DNA of 62,988 bases, filler included, from Globobulimina sp. (Eukaryota), in assembly GCA_003354225.1 (NCBI GenBank). It is 18 parts of 18 records of this genome, joined end to end, with 100 filler letters (N's around TTAATTAATTAA, not from the genome) between each part and the next. Parts side by side here need not be neighbours in the genome. Positions count along the whole stretch, not along the records: positions 49,076 to 52,479 come from PIVH01002888.1; 17 more parts are not named here. One strand, written 5' to 3'. This document shows, piece by piece, positions 45,572-55,982 of this stretch; the stretch's first letter is position 1; each line of letters begins with the position of its first letter. The notes below the pieces were generated by a model. That model searched no databases. It saw only the letters and a program-made list of their open reading frames with translations, and had not been told where the DNA came from. The position numbers and the translations under genes were made by a program.

Positions 45572-47375
45572 GCTTCCACTTCAGGTTCAGGCTCAACTTC
45601 AGTTTCAGGCTCTGTTTTTTCCTCAAATTGTGGCTCTGGCATTATTTCTGGAGCAATGTCTTCAGGCTCAGGCTCAGGTTTTTTTTGTTCCGCGAGCTCA
45701 ATGGATGAAGCCGTTTGAGTTTGCGTTTGATTCAGAGACTTTTTCTCAACTTTTTTTAACTTCGAAGGGATGTAAACTTCAATATTTTTATCCTCGCCAC
45801 CACCATCACCTCCATCCGCCGCTGTATTTGTATTTTGTAGCTCGGCTTCTCGCGACCTTTCTTTCTCTAACTGTTCCTCATAAATCTCACCCAAATTCGA
45901 GTTCGCTTTGCGATGTTTTTCAACCCTCAATTTTTTTTGAAAAGTACCAGTGCGTCGAATATTATTTGCTTTCGCATAAATGTCCGCACGGTCTAAAACA
46001 TCATATTTTTGATATTTCTTCCAATCAGACCTTCCCGACTCACTCTCATGGTTTCCAGTCACGTATTTTTGTTCAGCGAATATAAATTCTGCCTCTTCGT
46101 CTTCTGCCTGATCGATTGCGTCCATTTCCTCCCATGACACTCGCAAACATTCCTTGCGTAACAACGCGACCAAAGCGATAATATGCACTATGATCCATAT
46201 CGCTGTATATATTATGTACATTGCAATCAATCTGAACCTATCATGGTGCGCTATATACATATCCTCGCACTCATACACAAACACATTACCTCCCGAAATC
46301 AGCGCGCAATACAGATCAATTTCGGCGCCATGCTCGTCCAACGAAGGTACGCCAGCCACCGCATTCTCGCCAATCAACACCATGACGGCAATGAAGCCCA
46401 ACAACAAATAATAATCCATAAAGGTCAAATATGACACTTTGGGCAACATCGTGGAAACAATAAACCGAAATGCCACAGCGGCCAACATCAACGTCACTGT
46501 CACAGATAACCTGTCCGCTATGTCACTGCGAGGGATCACAAACGCACTAAAACAGCCTGCCACGATCAGAAAATTAGGAAAGATTATATTCCCAAAATAA
46601 AAGGCACTGCGTATTATATATTGCACCGTAACCACAGTACGTACAGTCAGTCAAAGAGGCGCAAACTTAACGGCATTCGGTTTACACGTAAACGGATGGC
46701 CAATGGCTGTGGAGTGCTGAAATCGACCCAAGGATCAAGCAATTCGTACTCGGTGATGGAGGACAGCATTCGTACCGCAAATTTGCGGTCAAACTCTTTT
46801 AATTCCTGTGGCATCCACTCAGGATATTCTAATATCCAATTCCATGGCCCTTCGCCTTCAATGGCGGGCTGGATCATGGCATTGAACTCCATATTCAAAA
46901 ATTGCCGGTCTAAGGGAAACCTTTGCAATTCCATGCGTTCCACAAAGGTGCACTCCACGACAAACATCATGTATATTGTGCCCGTCGAGGCGAAATAACG
47001 AAATTCTGGGTCGCTGTGCGAAATATCCGTCTTATTTTCGAATATTTCGCTCATTTTAACGGGGACATAGTCGTCATGGATCTGGATTTCTTCGTTTTCG
47101 AAATCTGGGATTAAATTTGGTAAATTATAATCCTGCCAAAATAAGTGGATTTCGATGGAGGTTCGAAAGGTCTGTGAGGGGACGTTGATGTCTTGCAATG
47201 TGATTTCGAACCAACTGTACACATCGGTAGGTTTGTCGGAGGTTCGTTTTAATTTAATGCCTCTGTTTGCTTGTGGTTGTTCGAAGGGGTCGTCTTCTAA
47301 AAAATCTTCGGGTGCTCCTGAGCCTTGTCGTCCTACGGATCGTGCAGCTGAACTTGCTATAAATAACTCTGCCAT
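45572..47375 (-). CDS. Cys-less pentameric ligand-gated ion channel subunit, 3'-partial
   Basis: ELQRFPLDRQ Pro-loop. Intron 46671-46607 gives RMPAFYFGNIIFP (M1); then ADRLSVTVTLMLA (M2) and LPKVSYLTFMDYY (M2-M3); in-frame intron 46289-46203 within M4. Confidence 0.9.
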
Positions 47376-47457
47376 GTATTTGGCAAGTTTTTGGTACGTA
47401 GTTTTTGCACTTCTTTGAGTATACAAGAGCCATATGTTGCAACCATCAGCATTTTCA

Positions 47458-48975
47458 ATGAATAATGCACAGTCGCAACAGGTATGTTGTTGACTTGTGT
47501 ATTATCTGTTTGCTAAATCATTTAAATAAATACATGTTAGATGTCATCGCCTGCGATGAATCCATATCAAAATCATTCCAATATGCAATTACAGCAAACA
47601 TATAAACAACTGTCGAATCGAGCAATGGAAGAGTTAAATGATGAAATAAAACGATTAAAAGATATTATCATGGATAAAGATGAAGAAATAAATAAATTAA
47701 AAGAGATAACAAATCAAGGCACGTTACAAAAAAAATTAGCAAACATTTTGGAAGAAAATAATAATTTAAAGTTGCAAATAAATGAAGAAAATAATAATAA
47801 AAAAGAAATCAAGGAAATAAAACAATCACTGAATACAAAGCATGATCAAATATATCGATTTCAGGAAAAAATAAACCTTTTAAATGAACAATATCAAGAA
47901 TTAATGAATAAAAATAATGATTTAAATAAAGAATTAATTTCTAAAACAGAGATTATTGCAAATAACAAATATAAGGACAGCGAAATTGTTTCGTTAAACA
48001 ACAAAGTACGACAATATGAACAACTTATTAATGATTTGAAAAATGCGACAAAAATAACGGATTTAGAGAGCGAAATAAATGCATTAAATGGAAAAATAAA
48101 TACAAAAAACAACGAAAATGTCATACTGAACGAAAACAATAAAAATTTAACAAATATTTACAACGCAATCAAGACAAAATATACAAAATTATTAAACGAC
48201 TTCGATAAAAATCTGGAAGAAAACCAATTAAAATCTAACAAAAAATTAAATATTTTGACAGATACTGCGAATGATTTAAAACTGAAATTAAAAACAGAAA
48301 TGAATAAAAATGCAGCACTAAAAAAGCAAATGTCGCAATTACAAGTGTCGTACAAGGAAATGGAAGAACTAAATCTCAAATTAATAAAAGGATACAATTT
48401 GACCGACATCATCAACGATTTACAAATCGAGAAAAACCAAAAATTGAATTTACAAAATGAATTGAAACAAATCACCAAAACATTGTCCAAAAAAGAAAAA
48501 ACAAATCTCGTTTTATTAAATAAAAACAAAATGTTGACGCAAACATTGACGCTCAACAAAAATATTGACACCAATGAATATGACATCGATGATGAAGAAT
48601 CCACGTATTTTGACCATACGGATCAAATTGAAGGTTTACAGCAAAACATTGAATCATTAAATAACAAAATTGACAAATTAGAATCTGATAAATATAAATT
48701 ATTGATACAAATACATGAACAGGATAATGATAACAACGACGATGAAAATGATAAATTATATATTTCCGGATTAGACTCACAGCAACAAAATAAAGTTAAG
48801 TTGTTTGTGCAAAAAATGATTAAAAAATCGTTAATGCCAAGCAACATCGACTTGGATGATACCTATATTGATGCGGATGATGTTGATGATGCTAAATTGC
48901 TGCAATTACAAAAAGAAAATACAAAATTAAAGGAATGGAAGGATATGTTAATGACAAAATTATTTGAAAATGGTA
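47458..48975 (+). CDS. Long coiled-coil protein, 3'-partial
   Basis: Short first exon 47458-47481, intron 47482-47540, then heptad-rich K/N/E/L sequence. Confidence 0.7.
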
Positions 48976-49135
48976 NNNNNNNNNNNNNNNNNNNNNNNNN
49001 NNNNNNNNNNNNNNNNNNNTTAATTAATTAANNNNNNNNNNNNNNNNNNNNNNNNNNNNNNNNNNNNNNNNNNNNTTTAGTTTTTATTTTGAATTAAACC
49101 ACACAGTTTTTTATAGCCAGACTGCAGAACAAACA

Positions 49136-50072
49136 ATGCCACAGTGTTCCATGCTGATGCTAGTTCCTGTCATTCTATCTCTATATTTCCCGTGGCGTAA
49201 TGTTTGTGAGAAATATATATTGGTATCTAACGTTACAACAGTGGACATTGCAGAAGAATATTGCAATCAGCACTACCATACATCACTCGCATCTATCCAC
49301 AGTGAAAGCGACAACACAGCGGCAAAACACCTATGTCGCAGCGACTGTGTCAATTTGAGTCCATGTAAGCAAGCATGCAGCATCGGGGCAAATGATAAAC
49401 AAAATGAGCGAGGATCGAATCGTACTGGCTGGGTTTGGAATGATGGATCGATATTTAATTATAATAATTGGGAGAAAGATGAACCAAATGAGGTGGATGG
49501 TTTTCCAAATGGAGAAGATTGCTCTATAATGTGGTCCAGTGATCATTATCATGCCGGAACTTGGAATGATTGTCCATGCGATGGAACCGGTGACTATAAA
49601 CAAAGATTTTTATGCAATGCCCCACCTTCAAATGATCCATCTATCAATGCAACCGAAGGACCCACTGTTGCCGGAAAAAAAGGAAAGAAAACCATTAGAA
49701 TCAGTTTTTTAATCATAATAGTATATATCGTGTGCAGTGTACTTGTTTTTTTTTGCTTTCTACTGATAATAATGTTTTGCTGTAAAGTGTATTTTAAACT
49801 GATGAGGTGCAATGATAAAATAGAAGTGGCGCAACATACGACATTAAGCTCTGCATCGACATCGGTATTACCAACACCAACGACACCAACCACAGCAAAT
49901 GAAGGGTATCAGTCAACTGGTTTGGAGTCGGATATTCTGAGCGATGATGACCAAGAAGATGATGATTTATATTCCAAACCGGTTGACAACATATACACAA
50001 CAGATGGCGTTCCACCGTCAGGGAATATTGTACATTTTTATTATATGGAGGTTGTGCAACATGTGCAAGAGG
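49136..50072 (+). CDS. C-type lectin type-I membrane protein (may continue into the Josephin exon)
   Basis: Signal peptide; AEEYC..LASIHS, WVWNDGS, NWEKDEPN, EDC, WNDCPC, FLC; TM IIIVYIVCSVLVFFCFLLIIMF. Confidence 0.85.
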
Positions 50073-50692
50073 GTATTTATTTGTTTTTGTTTACTTTTAC
50101 TGTATATTGAAATTAATAATATGTAGAATTATATCATGAGAAACAAAAATGGGAAATGTGTTTAATGCATGCTTTGAATGGATTGCTACAAAAACAGCAA
50201 TTTACAGTAAAACATATGAACGCTATTTGTAAGGAATTAGCACCGCAAAAAGTGATAAATCCGCATAAATCTTTATTGCAGACTGGGAATTATGATGCCA
50301 ATGTTTTGATGATGGCTTTGGCTAAAATGGATATTGAGGTTCAATGGTATGATGCGAGGAAAAAAAATGAACTTGATTTGAATGATGAAGAATTTTTGCG
50401 ATTTTTAGAGCCGGCTAATCAAAAATTCATTGGATTTATATTAAACAAACCAATCAAAGCAGCTTTTATGATTAAACGCCGGCATTGGATTGCAATCAAA
50501 GAAATAAATGGCGAATGGTATAATTTAGATTCAAAACTGAAGGAACCTCAACAATATAAAAATGCACAACAAGTAACTGCATATTTGGTGCATAGTTTGG
50601 GCGAAAATGGCGCGGAACTTATGATTTGTAGACAGAAAATCCAAAATATGAAACAAAAAAAAGTTAAAATGAATGTGGTGTTAAACTGGTGA
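50045..50692 (+). CDS. Josephin-domain deubiquitinase (JOSD1/2-like)
   Basis: Intron 50073-50126 restores ELYHEKQKWEMCLMHALN; NPHKS..GNYDANVLMMAL, RRHWIAI and WYNLDSK give a full Cys-His-Asp triad. Confidence 0.92.
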
Positions 50693-52579
50693 TGTTGTTG
50701 AATTATGCTTTTATTTTTTAATTTATAGTTTTATAGCCTTACTCTTTATGGTATTGGTTTTTTTTTTTCGAAATACTAAGAAATCAATTAAAGAGTCATG
50801 ACAGCATGGTGACGTTACACTTGTCGCGTGACAATATTCCAATTTCTGTCACGTAACATTATTTCTACAACATTTCATGTACAAGACTGTTCATGACTTG
50901 TAGACTGTACATGGCTTGTAAACATGGCAACTTGTAGACCGTGAATAACAATTTGTTTTGAAGAAACTGGAAAGTTTTGAAGAAATTATAAAAAAAGCTT
51001 TGAAAAAATTATTAATGATTATGGTGTATGCTTTGCATTATATCTATCTCTATATTTTGTCAATGTTCTCGTTACATATTGCTGTATCATTGTAGACCAT
51101 GTTGAACAACAAATTTTATTCCTTAATGTTGCTCTATTTTCATCCAATACACACAGCGATCTAGTTTATGTTAAATTCATCTAATTTAATCTAATCTAAC
51201 AACACCAGGAGCACTATTAACACACCAATGAATATGCATATGCTATTCACAAATAACAGACTAAGACTTAACAGTGTTTCATTTTGTGATAATTGAAGGA
51301 ATTCTTTTGCCCAATGATTTGCTAAATATATTAATGATAATTTGAAAATACCAAATATTTTTTGAACATTTCCTCTTAAATATTGCTTTGCAATCTCATA
51401 TTAAACATAAATCTGAAAAATATGTAACATTGTCAACCTATATAGAATTACCTGATGTCTGCTGAAGATAACACAACTTTATAGACATAGCTTTACACCA
51501 ATCCTTTGTCATTTTTTGCATTGTTTTGGCTAACTCTGATGTGTCATCAATGTAATCAATACGATCAGATGTCATATCTCTCCAATTTATATTAATATTG
51601 TTAATAATTGTATTATAAATATATTGCGGTACTTTTTTTATGACTTCAGTGTCTTGACTGACTAAATATGCTACATTATCCGCTGTAGCTATACTTTTAA
51701 GAATATCTTTCAAAGGTTTCGCCTTTTTTTTGTTGCGGTATTGAATCAAACCACATATTGCTGAATGTTGCAACGTTGCAATTAACTCCAAAGCGTCTTG
51801 AATATCATTTTCAAGTTTAGTTTCCTTATCAATTTCATGTAAAACATTAAAATCACCATTTTCTTCATCATCACTAATTTTAATATCATTTTCAGTATTT
51901 AACAGTTTAATTTTTTTTGAGATTTGTATTAAAACTTTATTATTAGTTGCATAATTAAAAGAATATGTGTTTGTTGTATATTGTTAGAATTATTGTTGTT
52001 GTTGCTGTTATTATTTTCATTGCAATTATTGTTGTTGTTTGACAAAACTGTATTTAAATAGTCACTTTGCGCTACATATGAGTTTATAATGTTATCATGT
52101 TCATTGTTTTGTGATAATGATGGTATTAAAGGTGAGTTTGGATTTTGATTCCATGACAGAGCCGGATTTTGCAGTTCTGTCATGACTAACACGTACTTTG
52201 TAAATCCAGAACTAAGTCAGAACAAATTTATAATTGAACAAAAGGGTGAGGAAATGTTGGTAAATTACGTAATTAAAAGTGGACTGTAGGTCCTAGGTCC
52301 TGCATAATTGTGCATAAGTGTAGATAAGTTATTTTTGGAATGATGTGAATATAACAGTCAATTAGACTATGGCCAACTAAGTTTTTTTTGAGACCGTTAC
52401 ATTTAAAGTCTACTTATGTCTACGAGGATTGCTTGCTAGCAGCGTGGATTAATTAAAAGTCCTCACTCTATTGCCTCTANNNNNNNNNNNNNNNNNNNNN
52501 NNNNNNNNNNNNNNNNNNNNNNNTTAATTAATTAANNNNNNNNNNNNNNNNNNNNNNNNNNNNNNNNNNNNNNNNNNNN

Positions 52580-53135: not shown

Positions 53136-55982
53136 TCACACAGAAATCTGAACAACAGATTTCAAAGTTTTTTCTTTTGAATTATGCGTAAAAGTTATTT
53201 CAAAATGCACCACAAATGGTTCCTTTCCATGCTTTGTATTGTTCATTTCAAATTGTTGAGTAATTGTATTTGTTGATTCTTTCAATAACTTTACACCATT
53301 TGCTGCTTTGATTTGTAATTCAATATATTCTGCCACATCCACCACAAACCTAAAACCATCCATATCCTCCGAACTTTTATTATAAAATGTAGCTAAAACC
53401 CGACATATATTGCAATCTTTTGATGATTTAATAACTTCAAATGTGATTCTTATATCCTTATCATTATACACTTCAATAACTGTTCTAACCTCTTCTTTAT
53501 CATCATCACCAACCACAGCTAACACATCAACTTTTTTCTCATCATCACCATCCTCATTAATATTGCACATTGGAGTTGAACCATCCATCATCGCTTCCAA
53601 TTCAGCCAATTCATCATCTTCATCCTGTTGAATATCTAATTTTATCCGTTGTTGTGGCGGAGGCGCAGCGGGCAAATACATCACCGAACTACTTGCAATA
53701 TCATCACCCATTTCATTTAACAATTCGTCAGCTTCCATTTCTTCCAACTCTGCCAACTCAGCTTCCAATTCACTGTCATCCATAACTTGTCCTAACGGCT
53801 GCGACATTGCCTCGTTCATTTCAGCCACCTCATCCATTTGATCCATTGCCTCATTGATATCTTCCATTAATTCATCAGTTTTGTCTAAATCTGATTCTTT
53901 CACAGTTGCTTTCATTGTATTTGCTGATGTTTTCATTGCCTGTACGTTATAATCAGTGTTTATTGCAATATTAATATATATATATTTATAAATAATGTTA
54001 ACTTTTAATGTTTGTTTGTTGAGTTTAGCGTCTTGTAACGCCATAATTTGTGTTTCTAAATTTAATTTTTTTGCTTGTATTGAAGCTAATTGATTTTCGA
54101 ATTCTTTTTTCTTTTTTAATTGCGAAATTGCTCCTTTTTTATCTCTTTGGGTTGATTTTGTTTTTGCATTTTTTAAACAAACAGATATTTTCTGCTCTAA
54201 ATAAGCTTCTCTTTTTTCCAAAGTTCCCACCGCTTCACGTAATGCCTGAATATTGCTATTGGATGACGGTGGTTTGACTGCTTTCGGTCTTTTTTTCTTT
54301 TTTTTCTTTTTCTTTTTTTTCGAACTGCCTTCTTTTTGCTGAATATAAAATACACAGCTCACATTTTTTTGATATTTTGCAATGATAAAAATGATGCAAA
54401 CCTTAACCACAATCATCGAAGTCCACGGCGTCACAAATTTATACTTCATAGCCAATGCTAACGGCAATGTATCATCTTCTTTTTGTTCATCATCGTCTAT
54501 TTCAAGCATATCATTATAAAAAATCAATTTCTTTTTTGCAAACTGCTGTAACTTCAAATATGCCCATATTCGTTGGATATTATTCTCATTTACACCTTCT
54601 TTAACGTCATAATCTTCCTCCACAGGGATATTAATTTCAATTTCTTTATTTATCTCAATCGGTTTTGTAATGAATTTATTATCGCTTTTAACCCCTTTCG
54701 CAGTGATGGCAGTTATGGTGGCTTTGAGAGTTAATTGTTTCTCATTAATTAACTGACCGCCGATAATAATATCATTTCCATGGAACAATGTATTAAATTT
54801 GGTATTGGTGATATTTGTGATATTATTTGTATTATATTTAATGTTAATATTTGTCAAAAGTGGTCTGGATAAAATATGATAATATTGATTTAACTGCGTA
54901 TCGCAGTTTATCTTTTTTATTCTTTTATAGATTCCATTATTATTTAAAGATAATATTTTCAAAAATGAATGATTTAAATCTTTGATCCATTTCGAATCAT
55001 TGTCATTTGAGCCAACACCAAATGAATAAATGGATATCTTTGAAGAATATTTATCAATTTCTTTCAATTGATTTGCTTTTTCCACATTTAATAATATTTT
55101 GGTCGTATCCGTCACGCCATTGTTGGCTTCGCCATCGGTGATAAATATAATTTGATTGAGATAAAAATTATAATTGTCGTCAAGCGCCTGTTTGTCAATG
55201 AATGTGATGTCATTTTTTATTAAAATAATGCCATGCAATAATGCTGAATTTATATCTGTGGAGCCGCCAAGTTTCTGGGTTTGAACATAACTCATTGAAT
55301 CTTTGATATTTGCATCATTTGCTAATAATAAGTTATTATTTTGCGTTAATTGCTTGATATTTTGATCAAAAAATACGATGGAATATCGATCATAATGCAC
55401 TCTTAAAAGTTTTAGTGCGTTGATGGTGGCTTCTTTTGTTTTCCTCCATTTCTCGCCGTGCATACTGTAGGATCTGTCAATTATAAATATGACACGACGC
55501 GGTATCAATACATTTGAATCCTCTTTCATTTCATCACTGTGTCCCTCATTAATGTCTTTTGTATCACTTATTAACGAATCTGTAATCATATCAGATATGA
55601 TATGCACGAATGTTTGACTTTGTTGGTGGTATAATATCGAATGTTCGTTCTCTTCTCCTTTCACTTTGTATTTTAGCACAAATTCTGTCACTTTGCTCTG
55701 TTTATACCGTAATTTTCCTTTCATTGTATAACTTTGAGTGGATTTTTGCATTATATTTTCGTCAATTTGTAGTATATTATTTATATTGTCTGATATTGCT
55801 GGCAATTGAACATCAAATATGCCTCTCTTGTCAACAATATTTAAATTGAATGAGATATATTTGTAATTTTGTGAAATATGATATTTATTAAAATCACGCA
55901 CAATTTCAATATTTAATTCGTTAAAATTGCATTTTTTTTTAAGATATTGTTCAATTGTAATTGTTAATGATATTTCGGATTC
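53136..55982 (-). CDS. Fusion protein: ITIH-type VIT/vWA + Snf7 (CHMP4/Vps32-like) + gamma-adaptin ear; 5'-partial
   Basis: FIIDRSYSM, GGSTDIN, FITDG, RIWAYL, KYKFVTPWTSMIVV; then LEKREAYLEQKI..DKKGAISQLKKKK..LETQIMAL..AMSQPLG..DDSELEAELAELE; then VYNDKDIRITF..ATFYN..ITQQFEMNN..GKEP. Two in-frame 63-nt introns (54401-54339, 54002-53940). Confidence 0.82.
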   Translation of the reverse strand, partial: ESEISLTITIEQYLKKKCNFNELNIEIVRDFNKYHISQNYKYISFNLNIVDKRGIFDVQLPAISDNINNILQIDENIMQKSTQSYTMKGKLRYKQSKVTEFVLKYKVKGEENEHSILYHQQSQTFVHIISDMITDSLISDTKDINEGHSDEMKEDSNVLIPRRVIFIIDRSYSMHGEKWRKTKEATINALKLLRVHYDRYSIVFFDQNIKQLTQNNNLLLANDANIKDSMSYVQTQKLGGSTDINSALLHGIILIKNDITFIDKQALDDNYNFYLNQIIFITDGEANNGVTDTTKILLNVEKANQLKEIDKYSSKISIYSFGVGSNDNDSKWIKDLNHSFLKILSLNNNGIYKRIKKINCDTQLNQYYHILSRPLLTNINIKYNTNNITNITNTKFNTLFHGNDIIIGGQLINEKQLTLKATITAITAKGVKSDNKFITKPIEINKEIEINIPVEEDYDVKEGVNENNIQRIWAYLKLQQFAKKKLIFYNDMLEIDDDEQKEDDTLPLALAMKYKFVTPWTSMIVVKVCIIFIIAKYQKNVSCVFYIQQKEGSSKKKKKKKKKKRPKAVKPPSSNSNIQALREAVGTLEKREAYLEQKISVCLKNAKTKSTQRDKKGAISQLKKKKEFENQLASIQAKKLNLETQIMALQDAKLNKQTLKVNIIYKYIYINIAINTDYNVQAMKTSANTMKATVKESDLDKTDELMEDINEAMDQMDEVAEMNEAMSQPLGQVMDDSELEAELAELEEMEADELLNEMGDDIASSSVMYLPAAPPPQQRIKLDIQQDEDDELAELEAMMDGSTPMCNINEDGDDEKKVDVLAVVGDDDKEEVRTVIEVYNDKDIRITFEVIKSSKDCNICRVLATFYNKSSEDMDGFRFVVDVAEYIELQIKAANGVKLLKESTNTITQQFEMNNTKHGKEPFVVHFEITFTHNSKEKTLKSVVQISV

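Follow-up and report, generated by a model that had tools for sequence, protein, structure and literature searches.

The known outputs of enzyme-linked receptors include kinases, phosphatases, cyclases and ubiquitin ligases, and the receptor-type RING E3 ligases RNF43 and ZNRF3 (PA-TM-RING) have the layout of ectodomain, transmembrane (TM) segment and ubiquitin-system enzyme. Those ligases add ubiquitin, whereas the family described here would remove it. Among deubiquitinases (DUBs), USP30 is membrane-anchored by a TM helix; USP19 and USP30 both have the USP fold, terminal anchors and no known folded ligand-binding ectodomain, unlike the protein studied here. Bacterial Josephin clippases cleave after Arg-74. 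On the lectin side, C-type lectin domains (CTLDs) of the mannose receptor family and the collectins, such as Endo180/MRC2 and MBP, show the same fold and EPN/E/WND site as our protein; its CTLD is ~22-28% identical to theirs and has additional cysteines, and to our knowledge neither Endo180/MRC2 nor MBP carries a cytoplasmic enzyme.

Human JOSD1 and JOSD2 (MJD/Josephin, PDB 6PGV) share with our protein the catalytic domain, the Cys-His-Asp triad, a short hairpin, an aromatic pair and the Lys of the NLDSK loop, but they contain little beyond the catalytic domain (PMC7848729), whereas here the Josephin is the C-terminal module behind a signal peptide, an ectodomain and a TM helix. In USP19 too, a TM helix holds the catalytic domain on the membrane (PMC8020466). 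Plant lectin receptor-like kinases, including the C-type LecRLK, resemble our protein in having a lectin ectodomain, one TM and a cytoplasmic enzyme, and in their growth by ectodomain exchange, although their output is a kinase and not a cysteine protease. The bacterial clippases BpJOS and PcJOS share the Josephin fold (bioRxiv 10.1101/2024.07.24.604956), but identity is only 11-15%, and a fold search with the model of a homolog (P0003) came far nearer to JOSD2, its best match (33% identity) being the JOSD2-ubiquitin complex; those human Josephins that the preprint tested cleave conventionally, unlike the bacterial clippases.

In the full-text literature covered, which leaves out most subscription papers, those on foraminiferal genomes included, neither a Josephin of receptor type nor any DUB bearing an ectodomain was found, and phrases of the type 'transmembrane deubiquitinase' led, as far as visible, only to USP19, USP30, JOSD1 and bacterial effectors. 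A survey of the eukaryotic ubiquitin system includes one rhizarian, and its main text does not name Reticulomyxa (PMC4327156). Judged from its sequence, the protein reported here would be a new, receptor-like variant of the Josephin family, each part of which is a known domain.

Gene model and domain order

The window, that is, the whole stretch of DNA analysed (62,988 nucleotides, N filler included, from Globobulimina sp., assembly GCA_003354225.1), is a chain of ~3.4-kb contigs separated by N spacers, and the whole gene lies within one of them (window 49076-52479, G000:C2888). The features of the locus are as follows.

49136..50072 (+): exon 1, coding for signal peptide, CTLD, stalk, TM and cytoplasmic linker (open frame)
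49136..49207 (+): putative cleavable signal peptide, aa 1-24 (hydrophobic core aa 6-18; presumed cleavage site)
49208..49618 (+): C-type lectin domain, aa 25-161, containing extra Cys beside the canonical 43/160 and 129/148 (AlphaFold2 model, fold searches)
49481..49570 (+): Ca2+/sugar-site motifs EPN (49481-49489), E127 (49514-49516) and WND (49562-49570), aligned to Endo180/MRC2
49619..49699 (+): short P/T/S stalk, aa 162-188, with a basic KKGKK patch at its end (sequence; longer P/T stalk in a lectin-less sister form)
49700..49783 (+): single TM helix, aa 189-216, with a Cys-rich cytosolic end (hydropathy)
49784..50071 (+): cytoplasmic linker of 96 aa, predicted disordered (20 Ser/Thr, 17 Asp/Glu, 3 Lys)
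49967..49981 (+): linker motif LYxKP behind an acidic run (L, Y, K and P invariant in 6/6 linkers aligned)
50027..50044 (+): linker motif IVHFYY (HFYY invariant in 6/6 linkers aligned)
50073..50126 (+): phase-1 GT-AG intron of 54 nt (skipped in contigs of 4/4 runs examined)
50127..50692 (+): exon 2, coding for the Josephin domain, aa 314-481, and a C-terminal tail (Pfam PF02099, JOSD2 match)
50159..50530 (+): catalytic triad C324 (50159), H432 (50483) and D447 (50528), with W386-Y387 and K449 (alignment to 6pgv)
50633..50689 (+): C-terminal tail with a V-x-M/V-N-V...W motif at its end (similar Trp-terminated tails in L007, P0003 and P0007)

The lectin frame is open from the ATG at 49136 to a stop at 50108-50110, which falls inside the AT-rich intron (GC 0.17), and removal of these 54 nucleotides yields a single frame of 500 aa, as an earlier note on this DNA had read it. 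Among the 24 in-frame GT/GC..AG pairs near the junction, 50073-50126 alone retains the HFYY motif as well as the YHEKQ with which the Josephin starts. Ten runs are listed for this stretch, none on record as RNA; contigs of four public runs (at most three samples, three studies) were examined, and a splice joint omitting exactly the 54 bases is present in all four. In X3, possibly the source sample, a 931-nt contig contains 49195-50071 with 3 differences and then 50126-50179, thus uniting lectin domain, TM, linker and catalytic Cys, and overlapping X3 contigs span exon 2 to the stop with 0-1 differences. A contig is not a single transcript, and the spliced form is conceivably an intronless DNA copy, in which case there would still be one frame. 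Towards the 5' end, X3 has no contig over 49076-49194, a gap that proves nothing; 49126/49131-49183 was found in X7 and X8 contigs, and the junction between signal peptide and CTLD (49184-49194) is carried by the window contig alone.

The architecture of the gene, one frame encoding in order a hydrophobic N-terminus, CTLD, short stalk, TM, linker, Josephin and tail, is well supported. That the protein is a fused single-pass CTLD-TM-Josephin, as previously proposed, agrees with the spliced contigs and with paralogs and homologs of equal layout, and we hold it nearly certain that lectin and Josephin belong to one fused gene. The earlier note had also considered that the Josephin starts at its own ATG at 50045, the GNIVHFYY stretch being former intergenic DNA. 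The ATG is indeed in frame (M304), but the invariance of LYxKP and HFYY contradicts this alternative, as does the paralog L013, in which HFYY and the Josephin share one unspliced frame; moreover, Met 50045, which belongs to the HFYY motif region, is missing in P0003 and P0046.

Upstream of the ATG at 49136 the frame is open up to the contig edge, so that a further exon is possible, and a T-rich tract ending in AG (49107-49116), 20 nt 5' of the ATG, is a possible splice acceptor. The same contig holds a convergent neighbour ORF of 181 aa (51438-51983, minus strand) with no Pfam match, and no tRNA was found in it. On a different contig of the window, a 948-aa open frame (53139-55982, minus strand) combines VWA, Snf7 (ESCRT-III) and adaptin C-terminal (ear) matches, each above the Pfam cut-off; it likely includes in-frame introns and may be an unusual fusion or a read-through of neighbouring genes. 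Pieces of a Cys-loop-type ligand-gated ion channel (Neur_chan_LBD and Neur_chan_memb, both just below cut-off) lie at 45574-47501 on the minus strand.

Lectin domain, membrane anchor and active site

Preference for mannose, fucose and GlcNAc goes with EPN, and Ca2+ site 2 is formed by EPN, the following Glu and WND. The EPN and WND pointed out from the sequence beforehand are in place, at aa 116-118 and aa 143-145, and together with E127 they align with EPN..ED..WND of Endo180/MRC2; by these motifs the domain is a candidate mannose-type Ca2+-dependent CRD. Its AlphaFold2 model has a pLDDT of 81.8, the EPN loop being the lowest-confidence part (61-67). Fold searches with the model gave 371 matches at E <= 0.001 (Foldseek E 2.5e-8), and mannose-binding protein C superposes with Z 15.8 and rmsd 1.9 over 112 residues. 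Sequence searches of the PDB gave weak matches to C-type lectins (E ~1e-4), and a profile of six CTLDs from the same genome retrieved 175 PDB sequences, with C-type lectin domains in the best 60 of them. The domain also shows what the definition in PMC4362344 lists, namely the fold, four conserved Cys and a WIGL-like strand, here CSIGA.

No Pfam Lectin_C match was obtained for this CTLD, so a Pfam-based architecture search for Lectin_C plus Josephin, as the earlier note had suggested, would overlook it; by contrast, P0156 and its closest paralog, L027 (50% identity), both score above the Lectin_C cut-off. None of the six longer CTLD homologs is annotated with a Josephin, and the lectin-Josephin pairing is therefore seen only in this organism. 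The two closest CTLD homologs, P0156 and P0157, are type I proteins whose tails carry no enzyme. At least 18 matches to the lectin domain are present in the assembly; in L031 and L041, C-type lectin domains occur in tandem, with a long charged region behind them.

The call of a signal peptide is based on hydropathy (11-mer 2.68) and on comparison with paralogs; in the homologous CTLD proteins L055 and P0157 the domain starts directly behind a similar peptide. The TM stretch has a Kyte-Doolittle 19-mer mean of 3.26, and its counterpart in the P0003 model is a single helix (269-297, pLDDT 81-95). That this T-rich stretch is an unspliced intron was considered and rejected; it is kept in spliced contigs. 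Basic residues stand on both flanks of the helix, so that charge alone cannot set its orientation. One frame encodes a signal peptide (called from hydropathy alone), an ectodomain, a single TM and a cytoplasmic enzyme, the layout of a type I single-pass protein, and an N-out/C-in topology is very likely.

The Josephin domain matches Pfam PF02099 with E 6e-26 (91.6 bits against a cut-off of 26), human JOSD2 (6pgv) with E 4e-35 and ataxin-3 with E 3e-9. It aligns ungapped to JOSD2 at the hairpin region, and the long helical hairpin of the ataxin-3 type is absent. In the triad of ataxin-3, Asn takes the place of Asp. Here the C/H/D triad is intact, as had been claimed, C324, H432 and D447 aligning to C24, H125 and D140 of JOSD2 (PMC7337049). 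K449 is the equivalent of JOSD2 K142, a proposed activating ubiquitination site (PMC7337049), and W386-Y387 stand at the position of JOSD1 W100-W101 (numbering mapped by offset), a pair required for esterase activity, with W101F retaining activity (PMC7848729). The oxyanion Gln and the NLDSK loop are retained along with the aromatic pair and the full triad, and the triad and aromatic-pair residues are intact in the receptor members wherever these are covered. Over the first 59 Josephin codons, 57 residues are identical to those of the paralog L017, with 13 synonymous and 2 amino-acid changes. The model of P0003 has a confident TM helix and a confident Josephin joined by a low-confidence linker; the ESM Atlas had no usable match to P0003 265-610 or L005. 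From these conserved residues the domain is likely to be an active ubiquitin hydrolase. Since 312 residues comprising signal peptide, CTLD and TM precede it, the protein is a Josephin-family enzyme and not one of JOSD1/2 architecture. Elsewhere in the assembly, a divergent Josephin (L012, G000:C3149) has Ser for the catalytic His (RSW for RHW), is without YHEKQ, and is likely a pseudo-enzyme.

Most of the P0003 linker likewise has pLDDT <50. HFYY occurs also in P0003 and P0007, and a related MHY in L004, L005 and P0070; overall, HFYY is kept in four paralogs of the same assembly and four Bolivina argentea proteins, a fifth having IIHYY. Among the loci examined, LYxKP and HFYY are confined to Josephin loci, and they are probably docking or phosphorylation sites. 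In the single-chain model of P0003, built on a shallow linker alignment, HFYY was undocked on the Josephin (pLDDT ~51). SH2 and tyrosine-kinase-like matches in the assembly were considered for tyrosine-phosphorylation control of LYxKP; the best SH2-kinase loci (L057, L058, L095 and L096), which look animal (nematode Fer-like), may be contaminant contigs and were therefore given no weight. Three further loci (L097, L099 and L107) encode TM kinases resembling receptor tyrosine kinases, two of them with an HRDIACRN catalytic loop, and L099 has a P/T stalk like other type I proteins.

Receptor-shaped Josephins and their ectodomains

The assembly contains 19 Josephin matches on 17 contigs, and in 6 of the 17 a TM lies 5' of the Josephin in the same gene: the present locus, C38285 (L017), C4176 (L006), C15508 (L004), C18244 (L005) and C10330 (L008), the TM being called by eye in L004, L005, L008 and L017 and by hydropathy in L006. 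In L004, L005 and L008 the TM runs into the Josephin with no intron at the junction; L017 and L006 have introns (59 and 72 nt) at or near the position seen here. Bolivina argentea has seven entries with a TM 5' of the Josephin, of which P0001, P0003 and P0007 are complete from signal peptide (by eye) to stop, P0010, P0046 and P0070 are cut at the C-end, and P0019 is cut at both ends or TM-first. For each of the two domains, the nearest named homologs come from EukProt and belong to Bolivina argentea, Nonionella stella and Elphidium margaritaceum, which points to a foraminiferan; two clusters hold near-identical entries of Bolivina and Nonionella, so the genus labels may be mixed. Among the best 150 of 1,066 representatives matching our Josephin, nine have an upstream hydrophobic stretch (six of these Bolivina proteins, P0023 with several stretches, and two whose only such stretch is short and N-terminal), and just 25 have more than 60 residues upstream of the Josephin. 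P0023, on a 327-kb contig, is a possible multi-pass membrane DUB with a long tree branch.

The ectodomains of these proteins are unrelated. Besides the lectin of our locus there are Kelch (L008), ~1,250 aa of Cys-rich repeats (P0046), ectodomains without a Pfam name (P0001, P0003, P0007 and L006) and a bare short stalk (P0010 and P0070). By sequence comparison, then, the protein belongs to a family of receptor-shaped Josephins with exchangeable ectodomains.

A closer relative dispenses with the lectin altogether. In X7 and X8, a P/T-rich stretch of 131 other letters that keeps the frame links the signal-peptide region (to 49183) with 49666 in one contig, from which the entire CTLD is missing; X6 has loose ends matching this form. 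The sister form thus consists of signal peptide, P/T stalk, TM, linker and spliced Josephin. Over ~409 nt of TM and linker it has 26-28 differences from the window (~93% identical), the indels in its linker add up to whole codons, and of 16 substitutions placed in 49720-49983, 8 are synonymous (gapped stretches are left out of this count, and 64 further differences are unlisted). A DNA search of the assembly gave no second contig matching the lectin/TM part, hence the lectin-less form is not seen there. The closeness of a sister form without it suggests that the lectin is a recent, swappable module, and this form, with the missing Josephin pairing elsewhere, weighs against the lectin being essential. 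Of the lectin-receptor-DUB put forward in the earlier note, the TM-linker-Josephin layout is thus what is conserved; the lectin is not the defining part, because relatives have unrelated ectodomains and the sister form has none.

In a tree of 40 rows, from which six long or short rows and most non-foraminiferal JOSDs were left out, our sequence falls in a clade of 10 rows (support 99/94) in which five sequences of the same assembly and five of Bolivina are intermixed, thus the TM-linker-Josephin layout would predate the split between the two. An AU test rejected one common origin for the 15 receptor-labelled rows together (p = 0.008; the group tested was chosen after the first tree and includes L007 and L013, short contigs without TM), which suggests that the membrane module was gained or lost more than once. 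The same expansion includes soluble forms and ankyrin-repeat-Josephin fusions (L011, P0002 and P0004) whose Cys/His-rich N-terminus is common with Elphidium. Another possible fusion is L018 (G000:C4317), with Tudor-like and PH domains just 5' of a Josephin split over frames.

Proposed function and competing readings

The reading we favor, with a probability of about 0.52, is a type I receptor-shaped DUB that is clustered by ligand and removes ubiquitin at the membrane under proximity control. With Ca2+, the lectin domain would bind glycans of the mannose/fucose/GlcNAc type carried by prey, substrate or nearby glycoproteins, and such binding would gather the protein at the contact site. The Josephin, on its long flexible tether, would be controlled by proximity and not by a rigid transmembrane switch, which is unlikely since the 96-aa tether is predicted disordered. 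It could then strip ubiquitin, Lys-linked or Ser/Thr ester-linked as for human JOSD1/2, from co-clustered membrane proteins or from itself, and this would delay ubiquitin-driven endocytosis, sorting and degradation at the contact site. With 20 Ser/Thr and only 3 Lys, the linker composition would fit ester-linked ubiquitin if the enzyme acts like JOSD1, which contributes to membrane dynamics and endocytosis (cited in PMC7337049). Whether ligand binding directs DUB activity at the cell surface or in endosomes we regard as evenly balanced. A glycan sensor for prey or pathogens, as suggested in the earlier note, is a hypothetical role; for radiolarians, C-type lectins are a proposed means of recognizing symbionts (PMC4362344), which we take as a lead only.

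The receptor Josephin may be the counterpart of TM-RING-H2 ligases of the same assembly. Among 30 RING loci examined, 11 have an upstream in-frame hydrophobic stretch and five (L080, L094, L071, L073 and L092) look single-pass with an ectodomain, so that opposing receptor-like ligases appear to be present.

The main rival, unlikely in our estimate although ahead of the others, is a DUB anchored constitutively in membranes of the secretory or endosomal system. Its luminal part would sort the enzyme or retain glycoprotein clients (e.g. with high-mannose glycans) for the DUB to rescue or recycle, with no outside sensing. Plain anchoring fits as well as sensing where close relatives have an absent or minimal ectodomain (the sister form, P0010 and P0070), the disordered linker agrees with it, and USP19 is a precedent as an ER-anchored DUB (PMC8020466). 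However, ectodomains as large and diverse as Kelch and the Cys-rich repeats, and P/T stalks like those of other type I proteins (P0156, P0157, L027 and L038), suit surface display, and the repeated exchange of ectodomains suggests ligand diversification.

Improbable, too, is a release model resembling regulated intramembrane proteolysis, in which ligand, or shedding at the basic patch next to the membrane, leads to a proteolytic cut and the Josephin escapes into the cytosol. KKGKK does lie directly outside the TM, the linker is long and unstructured, and the soluble and ankyrin-fused Josephins show that an untethered domain can work; yet the outer basic patch was not seen in the other receptor members read, and no conserved cleavage motif was found. 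Slightly less probable still is a fused protein whose Josephin acts on a ubiquitin-like protein, or mainly binds ubiquitin with little turnover. The low or undetectable isopeptidase activity of human JOSD1 (PMC7848729) speaks for it, but the conserved triad, oxyanion Gln, aromatic pair and NLDSK loop, and the fold match of P0003 to the JOSD2-ubiquitin complex, speak against it. Finally, it is hardly credible that a lectin receptor gene is followed by a separate gene for a small soluble Josephin starting at the ATG at 50045, or that the assembly is misjoined: the in-frame Met 10 codons before the Josephin, the minimal JOSD1/2 and a possible short isoform from an internal start would suit the former, but the unbroken spliced contig, the lectin frame ending within the intron, the conserved motifs 5' of Met 50045, the whole-codon indels and synonymous changes of the sister-form linker, the equal layout in Bolivina and the three paralogs without an intron at the junction all argue otherwise.

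Extending the favored reading of a ligand-clustered receptor DUB to the whole family is more tentative, and we would place it somewhat short of even: a foraminiferal class of receptor-deubiquitinases with ectodomain exchange like that of receptor kinases, with several origins in a lineage-specific Josephin expansion, paired with receptor-type RING ligases, and reading extracellular ligands into the ubiquitin code (possibly Ser/Thr ester-linked) of the reticulopodial membrane.

Josephins have been reported as ubiquitin esterases with poorly defined substrates (PMC7848729). The receptor Josephins may offer natural cases for what Josephins act on in cells, the candidate substrates being narrowed to membrane neighbours because the Josephin is tethered. 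If they are ligand-directed, they would constitute a new receptor class with a deubiquitinase output, in which a single-celled eukaryote couples glycan recognition directly to ubiquitin removal.
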